From contig CAYZJT010000012.1 of NCBI GenBank assembly GCA_964478845.1, positions 8,173 through 72,172 of the forward strand: a stretch of 64,000 bases of DNA, read 5' to 3'. Source of the stretch: an uncultured Flavobacteriaceae bacterium. GTDB taxonomy: Bacteria; Bacteroidota; Bacteroidia; Flavobacteriales; Flavobacteriaceae. The notes under the pieces are model-generated. The model ran no database searches, was not told the DNA's origin, and saw only the letters and a list, made by a program, of their open reading frames with translations. Both the position numbers and the translations under genes were made by a program. Below are positions 11,537 to 17,783 of the stretch, piece after piece. The first letter of the stretch is position 1, and every line of letters begins with the position of its first letter.

Positions 11537-11785
11537 ATGAAAAATACTTCAGTCTCGCTGGGCACTCATTTTGATGAATTTCTCAAAAATCAAATCGATA
11601 GCGGTCGCTATAAAAACGCGAGTGAAGTGATACGCGCTGCGCTCAGATTGTTAGAAGATGAGGAAAGGTACAATGCGTGGTTGAGAGCTGAAATTCAGAA
11701 AGGTATTGATAGTGAGATAGTCGAGAATTTTGATTTTGAAGAGCATCTCAAAGCTTTGAAAGCAAAAAAGCGTAAGAGTGGTTAA
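11537..11785 (+). CDS. parD: ParD-type (CC2985 family) ribbon-helix-helix antitoxin
   Basis: TSVSLG...GRYKNASEVIRAALRLLE. Confidence 0.88.
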   Translation: MKNTSVSLGTHFDEFLKNQIDSGRYKNASEVIRAALRLLEDEERYNAWLRAEIQKGIDSEIVENFDFEEHLKALKAKKRKSG

Positions 11786-12074
11786 ACTTCACATTCGACA
11801 GGCGGCTATCGATGACCTCGATGAAATCTGGGACTACACAGAATCACAATTTTCTAGTTCACAAGCAGACAAGTATTACTTTCAGATCAAAAGTGTTTGT
11901 CATTCACTGCTTTCAAATCCTAATATTGGAAAATCTTACACTCATTTAGGGGAATCAATAAAGGGAATTGTATCTGGCAGGCACCTAATTTTCTATAAAA
12001 TTCACGAGGATAAAATTGATATATTACGAATTGTACACGGAAATAGAAATTATAGCGGAAAAGATTTGAAATAA
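11778..12074 (+). CDS. parE: ParE family toxin
   Basis: AIDDLDEIWDYT...QADKY...HLIFY...ILRIVH; overlaps the antitoxin. Confidence 0.88.
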   Translation: MVKLHIRQAAIDDLDEIWDYTESQFSSSQADKYYFQIKSVCHSLLSNPNIGKSYTHLGESIKGIVSGRHLIFYKIHEDKIDILRIVHGNRNYSGKDLK

Positions 12075-12091: not shown

Positions 12092-13156
12092 TTACGTTAC
12101 TATTTCACCAAGTCCAGCATCGTGAGTCGGTATCATCCACCCATTTTCAATCCTGAAAAGCCCAGAAAAAGGATCATTGGTGAAATCTAGATGACCATCT
12201 AGATCAGCGTATTGGGTGTTTGGTCTGGCTAGTGCAAAATGCAGTCCTGCGGCTATTCCCAGCATGCTTTCATCCAGACAACCTACCATCACCGGCATTC
12301 CAGCTGCGCTGGCTACAGAGTCGATGTGAACTCCCTGAGTGATCCCTCCCACCTTCTGCAGTTTGATGTTGATCATGTTTGCCCCAGCAGATTTTGACAA
12401 TGAGTGCGCATCGCTGATTGATCGCACGCCCTCGTCTGCCATTACGGGAAGTGGTATTTCTGTGGCGAGTCGCTGTAATGCGATATCATCCTGATAATCC
12501 GTGGGCTGCTCAAGCATCTGGATGTTTAGCTTTTTTGTCCTTTTGGCAAATAGCTTGCTTTTTGCAATGTCATAACCTTGGTTGGCATCAAATCGCAACC
12601 CCAGTTCTAGGCCGTAGACTTCTCTTAGTTTGGCGAGTGCCTTGACATCCTGATCCAGATCTAGTCCACCTTTGATTTTCAAGATTCTGTAGCCTTGTTG
12701 CCAGTACGCTTTCGCGAAAGCGAGAACATCATCCACAGGCATAATCCCGATGGTCACACTCGTGGCGATCTTTCTACGATAACCGCCCAAAAACTTGTAA
12801 AGTGGCACACCGGCAGCCCGCGAAATCAAATCGTATAGCGCGATGTCCACCATCGCCAGCGCAGACCGCTGGTTTTGAAGATGTTTTTTCAACTCGGCAA
12901 TGTGCAGCCTGTATTCCCATGGGTCTTTATTTGACAGGTAGGGCTCGATGGTGGTATTGATGGCATTGACCACGGACTCTGCCGTCTCGCCGGTGATTTC
13001 CATATCGGGCGCCGCACAACCCCATCCAGTCAGTCCGTTGTCTGTATTGAGTTTGAGAACTACGTTTTGGGCGCTGTCGATAGACTCGTAGGCGATCGTG
13101 TAGCCAGACTTCATTTTTAAATCCAGCACTTGATATTCGATACTCGTGATTCTCAC
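12092..13156 (-). CDS. Enolase-superfamily L-Ala-D/L-Glu epimerase family protein (DgcA-like)
   Basis: KIK general-base motif, DANQG / EQP / DE metal ligands, NIKLQKVGG and DLDG. Confidence 0.88.
   Translation of the reverse strand: MRITSIEYQVLDLKMKSGYTIAYESIDSAQNVVLKLNTDNGLTGWGCAAPDMEITGETAESVVNAINTTIEPYLSNKDPWEYRLHIAELKKHLQNQRSALAMVDIALYDLISRAAGVPLYKFLGGYRRKIATSVTIGIMPVDDVLAFAKAYWQQGYRILKIKGGLDLDQDVKALAKLREVYGLELGLRFDANQGYDIAKSKLFAKRTKKLNIQMLEQPTDYQDDIALQRLATEIPLPVMADEGVRSISDAHSLSKSAGANMINIKLQKVGGITQGVHIDSVASAAGMPVMVGCLDESMLGIAAGLHFALARPNTQYADLDGHLDFTNDPFSGLFRIENGWMIPTHDAGLGEIVT
12708..12721. repeat. Palindrome copy inside the epimerase (AFAKA frame)
   Basis: Exact 14-mer. Confidence 0.95.
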
Positions 13157-13159
13157 GGA

Positions 13160-13954
13160 CTAATATCTGTTTTGGTACAGTTTGTCAAGAGGCATGTTTT
13201 TGATGCTTTCGACAAATTCCACCATCTTTCTGATGGAAATATCCCACATCTTTTTGCCTTTCTCCGCGGTGGCTTTTCTTGCGTTGCCCATCACGCCGCT
13301 GTTGGAAATACGATCTGTATGCACATACCAGTTCACTCCACGATCTGAAGTGAAATCTAGATACTCGTTGTCCAGATCAAGGGTTTCATCTACAGCTTTG
13401 TTCATGTCGACAATTTCTGGTCGCAGCGCCAGCGTGGTGCTGGTTTCAATCTCACCGGCGTGGATGTCGTTTGGAGTATCGATCAATCCGTAAAGATCGA
13501 TATCGCTGGTTTCGCCCGTGTCTACACAAACAAAAATCTTTGCATCACGATTGATCATTTGCGCAGCGTAGGTGAGTGTAGGCTTGTTGTCGCCGTGACC
13601 GTTTAGGATGATCAGTTTCTTGATTCCGTTGTGTGCTAGACTCATCCCCAGATCATAGATGATTGCACTCAATGCATTATTGGTCACACTCAACGTTCCC
13701 TTGAAATCGCTGTGATGGTAGGAAACGCCATAGGGAATGGGCGGTAACACAAAAGGTTTGGGGTCAGCGCAATTTTTTGCTACTTCCTGTGCCATGTAAA
13801 CGGCATCGTAGTAATCGATGTCCACAGGTAGATGTGGCCCGTGCTGCTCGATGGCACCGCAAGGTAAAATGGCGGTGTCAATCTTTTTCAGCCTTTCTTC
13901 AATCTCTTGCCAGCTCAAGGTTTCCCAGAGGTAGTCGGTTTTTTTATTCTGCAT
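13160..13954 (-). CDS. Creatininase family amidohydrolase (start moved to the ATG at 13954)
   Basis: GAIEQHGPHLPVDID, NGHGDN and HAGEIETS motifs. Confidence 0.88.
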   Translation of the reverse strand: MQNKKTDYLWETLSWQEIEERLKKIDTAILPCGAIEQHGPHLPVDIDYYDAVYMAQEVAKNCADPKPFVLPPIPYGVSYHHSDFKGTLSVTNNALSAIIYDLGMSLAHNGIKKLIILNGHGDNKPTLTYAAQMINRDAKIFVCVDTGETSDIDLYGLIDTPNDIHAGEIETSTTLALRPEIVDMNKAVDETLDLDNEYLDFTSDRGVNWYVHTDRISNSGVMGNARKATAEKGKKMWDISIRKMVEFVESIKNMPLDKLYQNRY

Positions 13955-15473
13955 TTGCGTATTTGTATTTCTTCTGAGCCAGAAACTCAGGGGTGATTTC
14001 TTGATCTTCCCAGCCATTGTTTTTCCTGATGACCGCACCATCTGCGTATTCATCCAGAATGTTGAAAAGTGGCAGGCGCACGTATTCAGGAAGATCCTCT
14101 AAGTTACTGCGCTGTTCATCAAAACGCAGCTCCATCACACGTGGGTGTGATTTTGCCAATCGTTTGGTGAATTCGTTTTTTTCGATAGCGCCCTTTTCCA
14201 ACAGCATGTGGTAGAGGTGAGCGGCATCGCTGCCTATTTGTTTTATACTGGTATTGGATAGTTTTTGAAGTGCAAGCTCAATCTGCAGGTCGCTGTAGCC
14301 GCAGTTTTTAGGATCGGATTCAAGGGCGGTAATCATTCCTATGATCCGGCGGCACTTCTCGCATTTGCCGCAGGGATACATGCGTTTTTCGTGTTCATGA
14401 GCCGCGTGACAGCTTACCTGTTCTTTTTGCAGATCAGGATAACGCTTGAGTAAGACCTTCATGATTAGCAATTCTGACATGCTGCGCAGCAACGAAAACT
14501 GATATAAGTCCCAGCCTTTCCTTGCATAAAATCTGGTCATCGCATTATCAAAGTATTTGCTCTGATCATATAGTGCCGCGTAATGCGTTATTCCGTTCAA
14601 CGATTTTTTCTCGGTGGTGTCGTACTCGTCGCCTACGATGATGTTTTTCAGGCCTTGTTTCAACGCGATAGGCAAGACGCCAAAAAGAAAAACGGATACC
14701 GTCCACAAACGCACGGGGTAGATATCTGCACGTATACTGGCGTAATTAGGTTTGATGAATTTTAGGTGTCGCAGCATCCAGTTGAAGATTCGGTCGCTGT
14801 TGCACCATACCTTGTTAGTACGTGGTTCGCTTTCGCGAAAGCGTCTAAAAGCATTTACCGCGGTAAACCAATGTCTCCCTGCCTCGTTCACATAAATAGG
14901 ATGCGGATAGCTAAATTCCTTGATCATCCCATAGGAAACTAGGCTGTCCTTTCCGCCGCTGCTCAGGATTGCGTAGGCCTCGGGATTCGCTTTCGCGAAC
15001 CTGCCTGTCGTGCCATGGCAGGCAGGAGCGGAATCAATTTTACACGCTGGCTGTGTGAACTTGATCTCTGCCTGTGTGTATCGTTCACGCTTCTCTGGGA
15101 CTAGACCTGTAAACTCTTCAGTCAAAAATGGATTGTCCACCAGCTTGTTGCATAGGATTTCCCGACTTGTATTCTCGGTCATGTCCTTGATCAATTGCTG
15201 ATCGGTTTTGTCATAATTGCCGTCAAAAATCAGCTCACGGCAAAACAGGCCGTAATTCATCGCGACCTGAGCGACCATCATACTAGCCAAATTCTGATCG
15301 GCTAAATCCTTTTTGTTGAACAGCTTATCGTTGTAAGTGTAGAAAAGCGTATTTGTAAACGTGTTGCCGTCCAGATCGATGATTTCATAAACCGCCTGCA
15401 CCCGTCGAGGGGTGATGATGGGTTTGTGAATCCGCAGGCTGCGCAGTACGACAAAATCCTCGAGTGCAATCAT
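13944..15473 (-). CDS. Uncharacterised PP-loop ATP-utilising enzyme (MurL/QueC-like)
   Basis: SSGGKDS PP-loop and C-terminal Cys cluster CHAAH-x7-PCGKCEKCRR. Confidence 0.65.
   Translation of the reverse strand: MIALEDFVVLRSLRIHKPIITPRRVQAVYEIIDLDGNTFTNTLFYTYNDKLFNKKDLADQNLASMMVAQVAMNYGLFCRELIFDGNYDKTDQQLIKDMTENTSREILCNKLVDNPFLTEEFTGLVPEKRERYTQAEIKFTQPACKIDSAPACHGTTGRFAKANPEAYAILSSGGKDSLVSYGMIKEFSYPHPIYVNEAGRHWFTAVNAFRRFRESEPRTNKVWCNSDRIFNWMLRHLKFIKPNYASIRADIYPVRLWTVSVFLFGVLPIALKQGLKNIIVGDEYDTTEKKSLNGITHYAALYDQSKYFDNAMTRFYARKGWDLYQFSLLRSMSELLIMKVLLKRYPDLQKEQVSCHAAHEHEKRMYPCGKCEKCRRIIGMITALESDPKNCGYSDLQIELALQKLSNTSIKQIGSDAAHLYHMLLEKGAIEKNEFTKRLAKSHPRVMELRFDEQRSNLEDLPEYVRLPLFNILDEYADGAVIRKNNGWEDQEITPEFLAQKKYKYANAE
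14829..14842. repeat. Palindrome copy inside the PP-loop gene (FRES frame)
   Basis: Exact 14-mer; a partial 11-nt copy also lies at 14989-14999. Confidence 0.95.
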
Positions 15474-16528
15474 CTCAAGTGGTTCTTGAGCAAGTTGACC
15501 AGTCCATCTGCACCGTGGGCAAGCACATCAAAAGCCGGAAGCCCAGTTTCCTCAGTAATCTTCTGACAAGCTGATTCAATATCTGCTGGGTCTAGATTTT
15601 CATGGTTAACGGTGACTGCAATTACCTTCTTCCCAGAAATAGTCTCGATGGCATTGATCTGTTCAGGCAACGAATGCAGGCGATAGCCGGGAAAGCCGTC
15701 GTATTCCAGTCGGGTAGGGGCGTGCTGCAGAATGACATAGTCTGGTCTGCCAGCCGCCAAAATCTCAAACCCGCCGGGATAGGCTGGATTCATCAGGCTG
15801 CCCTGACCCTCGATGACTAGGAGGTCTGGATTTTCGTTTTTCCATGCCTCGTGGGTAGCATGCTCTATCTCACCGCTCACAAAATCGTTGATGCAGCTGT
15901 CCATGATCATGCTGTATTTGGCACCCTGCATCCATGCAGTCTGACCTGTTCCCACCATTTCGGCTTTTTTGCCCGCCTTGCGGAAGGCATGAACGATGAT
16001 CCAAGCGGTGGTGCGTTTGCCTATCGCGCTATCGGTGCCCAGTACGGCGATCTTCAGGCAATTGACTTCCTCGATTTTTCCCGTGAAGAAATGCAGCTCA
16101 TCGCGATCTGGTGTTTTGCGTACGTCTTTGATGGTTATATTATTTTCTTTAGCGAGGTTGACCAGTCGCTCATCTTTGGTTAAAAAGTCGTGCAGACCAG
16201 AAACGATGTCCATCCCGCAGCTTATGGCTTGAGCGATGATATCACGCGCCTTGGCAGGTAATCGACCTCCGTCAGGGGCAAGTCCGATCACAAAATTCTC
16301 GACGATATTTTCTTTTGTTGCGCTGTCAAAGTCGGCGTAAATGGGGATTCCGGCATTTTTGCCGTCAAGCACTTCGCCAGCATCTTTCCCAGCGTAGTTG
16401 CTGTCGATGACACCCACCACATCAAAACGTTCCGTAAAACGCACGAGGCCGTGGGCAGTTTTTCCGTTTGGGGTATTGAATGCACCCTCGCAGTAAACCA
16501 GCGCGGTGCCGTTGATGGATTTTTTCAT
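15470..16528 (-). CDS. DUF1611 family protein (DgcN-like N-acetyltransferase)
   Basis: GKTAHGLVR, GLAPDGG, GTDSAIGKRTT, GTGQT and IEGQGSL motifs. Confidence 0.88.
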   Translation of the reverse strand: MKKSINGTALVYCEGAFNTPNGKTAHGLVRFTERFDVVGVIDSNYAGKDAGEVLDGKNAGIPIYADFDSATKENIVENFVIGLAPDGGRLPAKARDIIAQAISCGMDIVSGLHDFLTKDERLVNLAKENNITIKDVRKTPDRDELHFFTGKIEEVNCLKIAVLGTDSAIGKRTTAWIIVHAFRKAGKKAEMVGTGQTAWMQGAKYSMIMDSCINDFVSGEIEHATHEAWKNENPDLLVIEGQGSLMNPAYPGGFEILAAGRPDYVILQHAPTRLEYDGFPGYRLHSLPEQINAIETISGKKVIAVTVNHENLDPADIESACQKITEETGLPAFDVLAHGADGLVNLLKNHLR

Positions 16529-16530
16529 AA

Positions 16531-17604
16531 CTATCTTTTTGCTGTGATGACCGCGACAAAACGATCATTTTCCAGCGGTTGTTTTTTGTGTAATTCCAAC
16601 AAAGCAATCAAGCCAGCGCTAGAACAGGGCAGAATGCGCATACCCTCTTTTTGGTTCAGGTAGCTGCTCATCTCTTTAAGCTTGCGGTCTGAAACGTGTG
16701 CCGCGTAGCCACTGCTTTCGCGCAAAGCGTAGAGGGCTTCTTCGCCATCAAAGCTATGCCAGTTGATCAAAGCCTCATTGACTAATGTCTCTTTGATTTT
16801 GCTTGGTTCCAGATCTTCGCAATGATCCAGTCCTTTTAGATGCGAGCTGATGATAGGATTCTTGTGCGCCGATGATCCAGCGACCATGTATGGAATTCTG
16901 CTTGTCTTCCCCCTTTTATAGAGACTCACGAAACCACGATATATTCCTGCTAGCACGGTACCGTTAGAAACGGGGCAGGCCAGATAGCGTGGTGCGTCTC
17001 GCAGGGTATCGTAGATTTCATTTGCAATTTCAGCGTAAGCTGCGATCTGCATAGGTGTGTTTGCACCGCCGGGGTTGGCATCATACCACGAATTTTCTGC
17101 TGCTTGCTTTGAACTCGACTGAACTACATCCTCATAAGTTCCAGTCAGCCTTATCAGTTCTGCGCCTAGCTGCTCGATCTGTACGGTGCGTTCTGAATGA
17201 TAGCTTTCTGGCATGAATACGTTGCAGTTCAGGCCAGCCAAACTTGCTGCATAAGCACAGGCTACACCATAGTTCCCACAGGTGGCGAGGGCAAGTGTAT
17301 CATAGCCTCTACGTAAGGCATCGAGCACCTGCGCAAAAGCAATGCGGTCTTTTTGGGTGCCAGTAGGATTGTTTCCCTCGTATTTCAGGAAAAGCTGTCT
17401 GATACCATGATCCCTTTCCAGCGTTCTGGCACGAGTAAGATTGGTATCCCCTACTTCTAGGCTGATGATATCTTCAAAAGATTCTATGCGATCTTGTAAA
17501 GAAAATGAATGATTCCTGACCATCGCACTCAGGCGATCAACCTCGGCGGTGTTAGTCACCACTTGACTTTTTACACCGTCCAGAAGATTGTTTTCAGTTA
17601 TCAT
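16531..17604 (-). CDS. Fold-type II PLP-dependent enzyme (threonine-synthase-like)
   Basis: LKYEGNNPTGTQKDR Schiff-base motif, ATCGNYG and CPVSNGT phosphate loop. Confidence 0.85.
   Translation of the reverse strand: MITENNLLDGVKSQVVTNTAEVDRLSAMVRNHSFSLQDRIESFEDIISLEVGDTNLTRARTLERDHGIRQLFLKYEGNNPTGTQKDRIAFAQVLDALRRGYDTLALATCGNYGVACAYAASLAGLNCNVFMPESYHSERTVQIEQLGAELIRLTGTYEDVVQSSSKQAAENSWYDANPGGANTPMQIAAYAEIANEIYDTLRDAPRYLACPVSNGTVLAGIYRGFVSLYKRGKTSRIPYMVAGSSAHKNPIISSHLKGLDHCEDLEPSKIKETLVNEALINWHSFDGEEALYALRESSGYAAHVSDRKLKEMSSYLNQKEGMRILPCSSAGLIALLELHKKQPLENDRFVAVITAKR
16714..16728. repeat. Degenerate palindrome copy (one extra base) inside the PLP gene
   Basis: GCTTTCGCGCAAAGC. Confidence 0.6.
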
Positions 17605-17738
17605 TTTTCAACATCAGACCTATAGAATTAGTAAGTAAATGTATGAGAATGCTATATCTGAAAAAGCGCTTTAAGAATAATTTTGCTAAAGCCTAATTTA
17701 TGTCTAACCCATTAAACTGAAAATAATGAATTAAAAAA

Positions 17739-17756
17739 GCCATCCTTGCGGATGGC
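17739..17756 (-). terminator. Intrinsic terminator of the 17784-18086 gene
   Basis: GCCATCC-GCAA-GGATGGC followed by TTTTTT on the minus strand. Confidence 0.75.
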
Positions 17757-17783
17757 TCTGAAAAATCTAATATGTTATTTTGA

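Follow-up and report, generated by a model that had tools for sequence, protein, structure and literature searches.

QueC, the 7-cyano-7-deazaguanine synthase, adenylates a carboxylate that is then attacked by nitrogen, and PP-loop enzymes of the QueC fold do more than synthesize preQ0, since they also carry out protein deazaguanylation in the cyclic-oligonucleotide-based antiphage signaling system (CBASS) and in Qat. MurL has been described as an unprecedented ATP-driven peptide epimerase. It requires ATP and Mg, forms AMP and was proposed to adenylate the C-terminal carboxylate of its peptide (PMC5808125, PMC8788868); it occurs in Xanthomonadales, some Alphaproteobacteria and rare actinobacteria (PMC8788868). 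Here we analyze P0001, a 509-residue protein encoded in a 64,000-nucleotide (nt) stretch of DNA from an uncultured Flavobacteriaceae bacterium (contig CAYZJT010000012.1); this whole stretch is the window, and all positions are counted in it. A first-pass annotation of the window, made from the sequence and its open reading frames (ORFs), had proposed that P0001 is an adenylating PP-loop enzyme of a new subfamily with a QueC/MurL-type cysteine cluster. We find that P0001 is encoded by the middle gene of a conserved five-gene cassette and that it is probably (with a probability of about 0.65) a zinc-containing QueC-fold PP-loop ATP pyrophosphatase from a sister family of MurL, which would adenylate the carboxylate of an amino acid or a basic dipeptide and would be coupled to a creatininase-type hydrolase.

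The protein family and its relation to QueC and MurL

The reading frame proposed in the first-pass annotation stands, and its strand, which was absent from that annotation, is the minus strand: the interval is open on this strand only, and the plus-strand reading was rejected because it is full of stops. The two motifs that had drawn attention to the protein, the SSGGKDS loop and the cysteine cluster (Table 1), are both invariant in 28 homologues of 57-71% identity, where ILSSGGKDSL, C355, H356, H359, C368, C371, C374, R375 and R376 are retained throughout. Among 23 much more divergent family members, with identities as low as 20%, full invariance is limited to N73, F77, S327 and the four cysteines. 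The invariance of the cysteines down to 20% identity means that the motif is not a chance occurrence, and this pattern of sequence conservation marks the gene as real and strongly constrained. Two further cysteines, C224 and C391, are conserved in the close family, and C224 varies among the distant members. The family also carries an acidic insertion of 14 residues (GDEYDTT...G).

P0001 escapes the curated models. The Pfam search returned nothing but noise even at E<=10, the NCBIfam search gave no match at E<=0.01, PDB searches by sequence and by family profile gave no significant match, and the PADLOC defense models matched neither P0001 nor any other cassette protein. Yet the family contains at least 2,939 proteins at E<=0.001 in a 90%-clustered collection, nearly all of them unnamed or "hypothetical", and 497 representatives at 50% clustering; relatives were found in 365 species-representative genomes. 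The Pfam family DUF6395 (PF19932) weakly matches 9 of the 23 diverse members (best E 0.0015) in the region of the cysteine cluster, P0001 residues 330-412, and may belong to the same superfamily as a further branch.

Structure prediction followed by Foldseek, the route to which the first-pass annotation had pointed, returned the QueC fold. An AlphaFold2 model of P0001, built on a 28-sequence alignment, is confident, with a mean predicted local distance difference test score (pLDDT) of 87.6 and a predicted template modeling score of 0.88. Its best match in the PDB is Bacillus subtilis QueC (3bl5; template modeling score (TM) 0.71 over the target, probability 1.00), followed by the CBASS QueC homologue Cap9 (9nto, probability 0.99); TtuA, GMP synthase, LarE and NAD synthetase match weakly, the TM being 0.25-0.35 for TtuA and LarE. 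In the model, SSGGKDS comes after the strand formed by residues 163-171 and aligns with the SGGxDS of QueC. As judged from the loop motif and from the similarity of the modeled fold, P0001 is a member of the PP-loop ATP pyrophosphatase superfamily.

When residues 160-400 were aligned by MAFFT with three canonical QueC sequences, 19 columns were invariant across both families, among them SGGxDS, R200-H201 (the QRH of QueC), P253, D303, the four cysteines and R376. All four cysteines of P0001 fall column for column on the zinc ligands of QueC, although their spacing is x12-x2-x2 instead of the x8-x2-x2 of QueC. Canonical QueC proteins from other genomes that carry the family have 218-226 residues, whereas P0001 is 2.3 times longer and has extra N- and C-terminal domains in addition to the acidic insertion. 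The Pfam family of QueC, PF06508, does not match P0001 at E<=10, and it matches only 2 of the 23 distant members, at E>=0.057. Because the family falls outside PF06508, it lies outside all clusters of a 2026 survey of PF06508, none of which resembles it, and the same survey reports a similar CGxCxxRR ending in QatC (PMC13329287). Cap9 and QatC, the protein-deazaguanylating ligases of type IV CBASS and QatABCD, have the QueC fold in common with P0001 and illustrate a scaffold that is able to join an adenylated carboxylate to an amine; they differ from P0001 in that the latter has no PADLOC match and is surrounded by small-molecule amino-acid enzymes and not by defense genes.

Two further domains flank the catalytic domain of P0001, and we regard the N-terminal one as unassigned and specific to the family. 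The N-terminal 147 residues, modeled alone, reach a pLDDT of 90.2, and a fold comparison with the PDB gave no match at E<=0.001, the best TM being below 0.4 to generic RNase-H-like topologies. Two residues of this domain, N73 and F77, are invariant even in the most distant members, which suggests that the domain has a direct functional role. The C-terminal ~110 residues had no fold match.

By sequence, MurL is the closest characterized relative of P0001, and remote homology over the catalytic domain is supported statistically. The MurL model NF041275 matches 11 of the 23 diverse family members (best E 7e-10), and these matches span model positions 230-363. A bridging protein of 457 residues, P0243, is recognized both by the family profile (5e-29) and by the MurL model (7e-10 over model positions 130-354), and its alignment with P0001 begins at the PP-loop and ends at residue 473, with 28% identity over 312 columns (E 1e-22). 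A search of 401 alphaproteobacterial genomes for MurL yielded one C-terminal gene fragment only; it is followed by a MurD-like ligase gene with overlapping stop and start codons, like the published MurD2/MurL pair, and it aligns with the family in hhalign (probability 78%, E 2e-5) over FSLLR..SEL..SC..CGKCxKC. P0001 itself scores 13.7 bits with NF041275 (E 0.016, residues 306-377 against model positions 260-334), the cut-off of the model being 700. Because of this score, because no MurD2-type ligase was found next to the target among the ORFs scanned around the locus, and because the host keeps a glutamate racemase (MurI, 197 bits, above cut-off), the family is best described from its sequences as a distant sister of MurL and not as its orthologue. 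The first and second cysteines are separated by ~35 residues in MurL and by 12 in P0001, the N-terminal domain of P0001 shows no detectable match to MurL, and MurL is paired with a ligase gene (MurD2, or the MurD-like gene of the recovered fragment), whereas the partners of the target are a creatininase-type hydrolase, a DUF1611 protein, a pyridoxal phosphate (PLP) enzyme and an enolase-type epimerase. The published taxonomic range of MurL (PMC8788868) does not overlap that of the target family. Our literature search found no paper on a MurL structure.

The bridging clade also includes a Thorarchaeota MurL-like protein (P0276, 453 residues), whose gene is followed by a D-Ala-D-Ala-ligase-type ATP-grasp gene and a GNAT gene, with a PALP enzyme next to them on the opposite strand, in an archaeal cluster at L088 1837-5981. 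The theme of a ligase, a MurL-like protein and a PLP enzyme is thus seen again here, with another family of ligases, and the association of MurD2 with MurL is a similar case. Another relative of P0243 (P0272, 466 residues, L087 2599-3999) is encoded on a phage-like 11.5-kb metagenome contig with many short same-strand ORFs that have no Pfam hits, so a PP-loop enzyme of the MurL/QueC-like kind may be virus-encoded.

As far as computation reaches, what had been proposed from the letters alone is upheld. The architecture is of the QueC/MurL type, with a QueC fold, aligned PP-loop, R-H, P, D and four zinc-cysteine columns and remote homology to MurL, in a protein said to be about twice as long as QueC. 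Its long N-terminal region of ~165 residues, then called unrecognized, has neither a Pfam or NCBIfam match nor a fold match, and no full-length, high-identity match to QueC or MurL was obtained with PF06508 and NF041275. The subfamily is new in that no curated model covers P0001, and it is a large, well-conserved branch between the QueC-fold enzymes and MurL. We found no published description of the family or of the pathway of its cassette.

The five-gene cassette and its enzymes

The most informative feature of the locus, which is missing from the first-pass annotation, is the operon. The five genes of the cassette (Table 1) are tightly packed on the minus strand, with junctions that are gaps of 2-3 nt or overlaps. 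The hydrolase gene most likely starts at the ATG at 13954 and so shares 11 nt with the end of the target gene; orthologous hydrolases have 264-266 residues and overlap the target gene likewise. Such overlapping stop and start codons suggest translational coupling.

Table 1. Features of the P0001 locus in window coordinates
Feature	Position	Strand	Basis
Fold-type-II PLP enzyme, ThrC-like, first cassette gene	16531..17604	-	NF004996, 394 bits
DUF1611 (DgcN-like) protein; stop overlaps target start by 4 nt	15470..16528	-	Pfam/NCBIfam searches
Target gene P0001, 509-aa PP-loop protein of an unnamed MurL/QueC-like family	13944..15473	-	ORF, homologue alignment, model
N-terminal domain, residues 1-147, beta3-alpha-beta-alpha, family-specific	15033..15473	-	Model, alignment, Foldseek
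QueC-fold catalytic domain, residues ~160-400	14274..14996	-	Foldseek (3bl5 and Cap9 9nto); canonical QueC alignment
PP-loop SSGGKDS, ATP pyrophosphate-binding motif, residues 171-177	14943..14963	-	Sequence; homologue and QueC alignments
Family-specific acidic insertion GDEYDTTEKKSLNG, residues 281-294; E283, D285 and T287 invariant; absent from QueC	14592..14633	-	Homologue and QueC alignments
Cys cluster C355-x12-C368-x2-C371-x2-C374-RR, CHAAHEHEKRMYPCGKCEKCRR, residues 355-376	14346..14411	-	Homologue, QueC and MurL-type alignments
C-terminal helical/beta-hairpin domain, residues 401-509	13947..14273	-	Model; common to bridging protein P0243 up to ~residue 473
Creatininase-family metallo-amidohydrolase, 264 aa	13160..13954	-	Pfam/NCBIfam searches; orthologue lengths
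Enolase-superfamily dipeptide epimerase	12092..13156	-	KxK, D/E/D, K and DxD conserved; E24, D51 and D295 invariant
ParD antitoxin and ParE toxin genes, which follow the cassette directly and converge on it	11537-12074	+	
Terminator-like hairpin, 10 bp stem and T-run, between upstream lipoprotein gene and cassette	17736..17759	-	Sequence

Locus statistics were taken from the 80 best genome loci. The hydrolase gene adjoins the target on its 3' side in 78 of them, DUF1611 occurs in 72, and the PLP and epimerase genes occur in 71 and 70, respectively; order and strand are always the same, and the five-gene order is kept in ~70 loci from several phyla. These loci belong mostly to marine Bacteroidota (Flavobacteriaceae, Saprospiraceae/Lewinellaceae, Marinilabiliales, Cytophagales) and also include Desulfobacterota, Calditrichota, SAR324 and Marinimicrobia, with identities of 55-60%, no lower than inside Bacteroidota. 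The 10-kb flanks of the 80 loci contain no other conserved gene, be it a transporter, a regulator or a precursor peptide, and the recurrent extra clusters found there are small ORFs, mostly antisense inside the cassette.

Gene fusions link the same partners: the target is fused to the creatininase domain in P0121 and in the distant members P0168 and P0170, and DUF1611 is fused to the target in P0125. In the 825-residue member P0124, a C-terminal class-I S-adenosylmethionine-dependent methyltransferase domain takes the place of the creatininase domain. Reduced cassettes with only the PLP, target and hydrolase genes also exist, for example in Lewinella cohaerens, and cassette-type DUF1611 and epimerase genes are missing from those genomes. 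The constant core is therefore the target with the hydrolase, usually joined by the PLP enzyme, whereas the DUF1611/epimerase pair can be separated from it and forms a module of the DgcN/DgcA type. In 3 of 5 reduced-cassette genomes a separate adjacent DUF1611 and epimerase pair is found (G021:C4:516680-518786, G022:C1:250689-252946 and G023:C346:3611-5806), with 40-43% and 31-34% identity to the cassette genes, respectively, which suggests that a two-gene module of this type is widespread on its own.

DgcN-DgcA, a DUF1611 N-acetyltransferase with an enolase-type N-acetyl-D-Glu racemase, has this pairing of protein families in common with the cassette. The cassette pair, however, scores 161.7 and 152.2 bits with the DgcN and DgcA models, far below the cut-offs of 480 and 400, the three further cassette enzymes, the target included, have no counterpart in that system, and the cassette epimerase retains the DxD clamp that goes with free dipeptides and lines its pocket with acidic residues. 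No paper joining DUF1611 with an epimerase, or a creatininase with a dipeptide epimerase, was found in our literature search.

The clearest clues to the substrate come from the epimerase. Its closest solved relatives are characterized dipeptide epimerases (3rit/3ro6, YkfB 1jpm/1tkk, and 3jva), and it keeps K160-x-K162, D191, E219, D244, K268 and D321-x-D323 of YkfB, the last of which we take to be the clamp on the free N-terminal ammonium of the dipeptide. All 70 cassette orthologues have Glu in place of Arg24 of YkfB, presumably the ligand of the substrate Glu side chain, and Asp at positions 51 and 295. D51 and D295 match acidic residues of the Methylococcus enzyme (3rit), which we assume to act on cationic dipeptides. 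From these residues we infer that the substrate of the cassette may be a dipeptide with a free N-terminus and one or more basic side chains.

The PLP gene scores above the cut-off of the NCBIfam "threonine synthase" model NF004996 but below that of TIGR00260. It is the only ThrC-like gene in the host genome, which is 99.99% complete and in which no homoserine dehydrogenase was found. Together these facts mean that it cannot act as a threonine synthase here, and a housekeeping role of this kind was rejected; the name is probably wrong, and the enzyme probably catalyzes another beta- or gamma-replacement or an elimination. The host itself appears unable to make homoserine and hence threonine.

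Proposed reaction and alternatives

From the observed fold, motifs, homology, operon conservation and fusions we infer the adenylation chemistry, the kind of substrate and the sequence of steps. By homology to QueC, Cap9 and MurL, P0001 would perform an ATP-driven adenylation of a carboxylate, with the release of pyrophosphate and then of AMP. The substrate would be a small amino acid or a dipeptide with a basic side chain, made or shaped by the operon partners: the ThrC-like PLP enzyme may supply or convert an amino acid, the DUF1611 protein may acylate or aminoacylate it, and the enolase-type epimerase may convert the C-terminal residue between its L and D forms. The acyl-adenylate may then be captured in two ways. 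The first way would be attack by an internal or external amine to give an amide or a lactam, as in QueC and Cap9. Alternatively, it would lose its alpha-proton, as proposed for MurL. The creatininase-type amidohydrolase would process the product later, and the net effect would be an irreversible ATP-driven step on a dipeptide-like molecule. That the substrate is a small amino acid or peptide had been suggested in the first-pass annotation and is supported by the context, namely an operon with a PLP enzyme, a dipeptide epimerase that keeps its catalytic and dipeptide-binding residues and an amidohydrolase that is sometimes fused to the target.

Several points weigh against this reading. The similarity of P0001 to QueC and MurL is remote in sequence: the MurL model stays far below its cut-off, and hhalign of the family with the three canonical QueC sequences aligns the PP-loop region only (54 columns, 32%). 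The basic character of the substrate is deduced from pocket residues of the partner epimerase and not from those of the target. The operon already encodes an enolase-type epimerase, next to which a second enzyme with a purely MurL-like epimerase role would seem superfluous. In some genomes the cassette is reduced to the PLP enzyme, target and creatininase genes, and thus a dipeptide made by DUF1611 is not an obligatory substrate everywhere. Finally, the four cysteines could hold an iron-sulfur (Fe-S) cluster instead of zinc.

The last point would suit an Fe-S-dependent sulfur-inserting PP-loop enzyme of the TtuA/LarE type, which would make a thiocarboxylate or thioamide on a small molecule. 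TtuA and LarE are indeed among the weaker fold matches, and C224 and C391 would add to the four invariant cysteines; we nevertheless consider this possibility unlikely, given the low TM of both matches, the exact alignment of the four cysteines, with their CxxCxxC pattern, to the zinc ligands of QueC, the variation of C224 in distant members and the absence of a conserved sulfur-carrier or cysteine-desulfurase gene from the cassette. It is similarly improbable that P0001 is a ligase that modifies a protein or peptide, either of the Cap9/QatC kind or as part of a system like those of ribosomally synthesized and post-translationally modified peptides, with the creatininase homologue as an MftE-like peptidase. 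Cap9 is the second-best fold match, the N-terminal domain may be a recognition domain, and MftE is the best NCBIfam match of the hydrolase, but at 133 bits, below the cut-off of 172. In the flanks, neither a small ORF nor a partner protein, a radical-SAM gene or a defense gene is conserved, the 179-nt gap upstream of the cassette is mostly filled by the hairpin and a promoter-like site, the PADLOC models are silent, and the partner epimerase retains residues that bind free dipeptides.

A divergent isofunctional QueC, converting 7-carboxy-7-deazaguanine to preQ0 in place of the missing canonical enzyme, would share the QueC fold and the aligned zinc and PP-loop motifs, and canonical QueC is absent from the host and from 16 of 20 other carrier genomes, a proportion counted in carriers alone and not compared with the rate in non-carriers. 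We rejected this explanation, which has very little chance of being correct: QueF, too, was not found in the whole host genome, so that preQ0 would have no downstream use, four carriers hold both a full canonical QueC and a protein of the target family, and the context in the loci examined is always an amino-acid-type operon and never one with que genes. The lack of a PF06508 match, the extra terminal domains and the acidic insertion also speak against it. The host has TGT and two PTPS/QueD-like genes but neither QueC nor QueF, a combination that suggests that queuosine precursors are salvaged and not synthesized de novo. As had been stated from the letters, no que genes or mur cluster are found nearby, a result that covers the ORFs from 7.8 to 23.5 kb. 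The latter result bears on the idea that the target is a MurL orthologue or replaces MurI, for which MurL as the closest characterized relative and the membership of the operon epimerase in a family that includes L-Ala-D/L-Glu epimerases could be cited. This idea is highly improbable, too, and was rejected in view of the NF041275 score, the normal glutamate racemase of the host and the absence of a Mur ligase nearby, unlike the recovered MurL-type fragment; in addition, the described MurL taxa lie outside those of the target family, and Arg24 of YkfB is replaced by Glu in the partner epimerase.

The reading of P0001 as a carboxylate-adenylating sister of MurL can be extended to a more specific and rather doubtful scheme, in which the target and its creatininase partner form a new two-step machine. 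The PLP enzyme and DUF1611 would build a basic dipeptide or amino acid, P0001 would adenylate its C-terminal carboxylate, and the adenylate would close to a lactam or an oxazolone-type ring, after which the cyclic-amide hydrolase would open the ring or remove a helper residue. If true, this would give marine Bacteroidota and sediment bacteria a one-way ATP-driven route to a new amino-acid metabolite, D-configured or of the lactam type, and the proteins concerned would be the first enzymes of the MurL type whose substrates are free small molecules.

Surroundings of the cassette and significance

All five cassette genes are single-copy in the host genome. The hairpin upstream suggests that the cassette is a transcription unit of its own. 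No Rfam family matches anywhere in the window at gathering score, and a riboswitch or other RNA leader was therefore rejected. The GC content of the cassette is 48.0%, against 42.7% for the host genome, and this excess, together with the hairpin, the neighboring ParDE pair and the identities between phyla, suggests that the cassette may have spread horizontally.

Two annotations likely need correction, namely "threonine synthase" for the PLP gene, which the NCBIfam model would assign, and "7-cyano-7-deazaguanine synthase" for some members of the family. Solving the reaction of the target would reveal a new pathway of amino-acid or dipeptide metabolism that is encoded in 365 species genomes or more, the best-matching of which are mostly those of marine Bacteroidota. 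It would also give a function to DUF1611 and creatininase-family proteins in the context of this cassette and may shed light on the mechanism of MurL.

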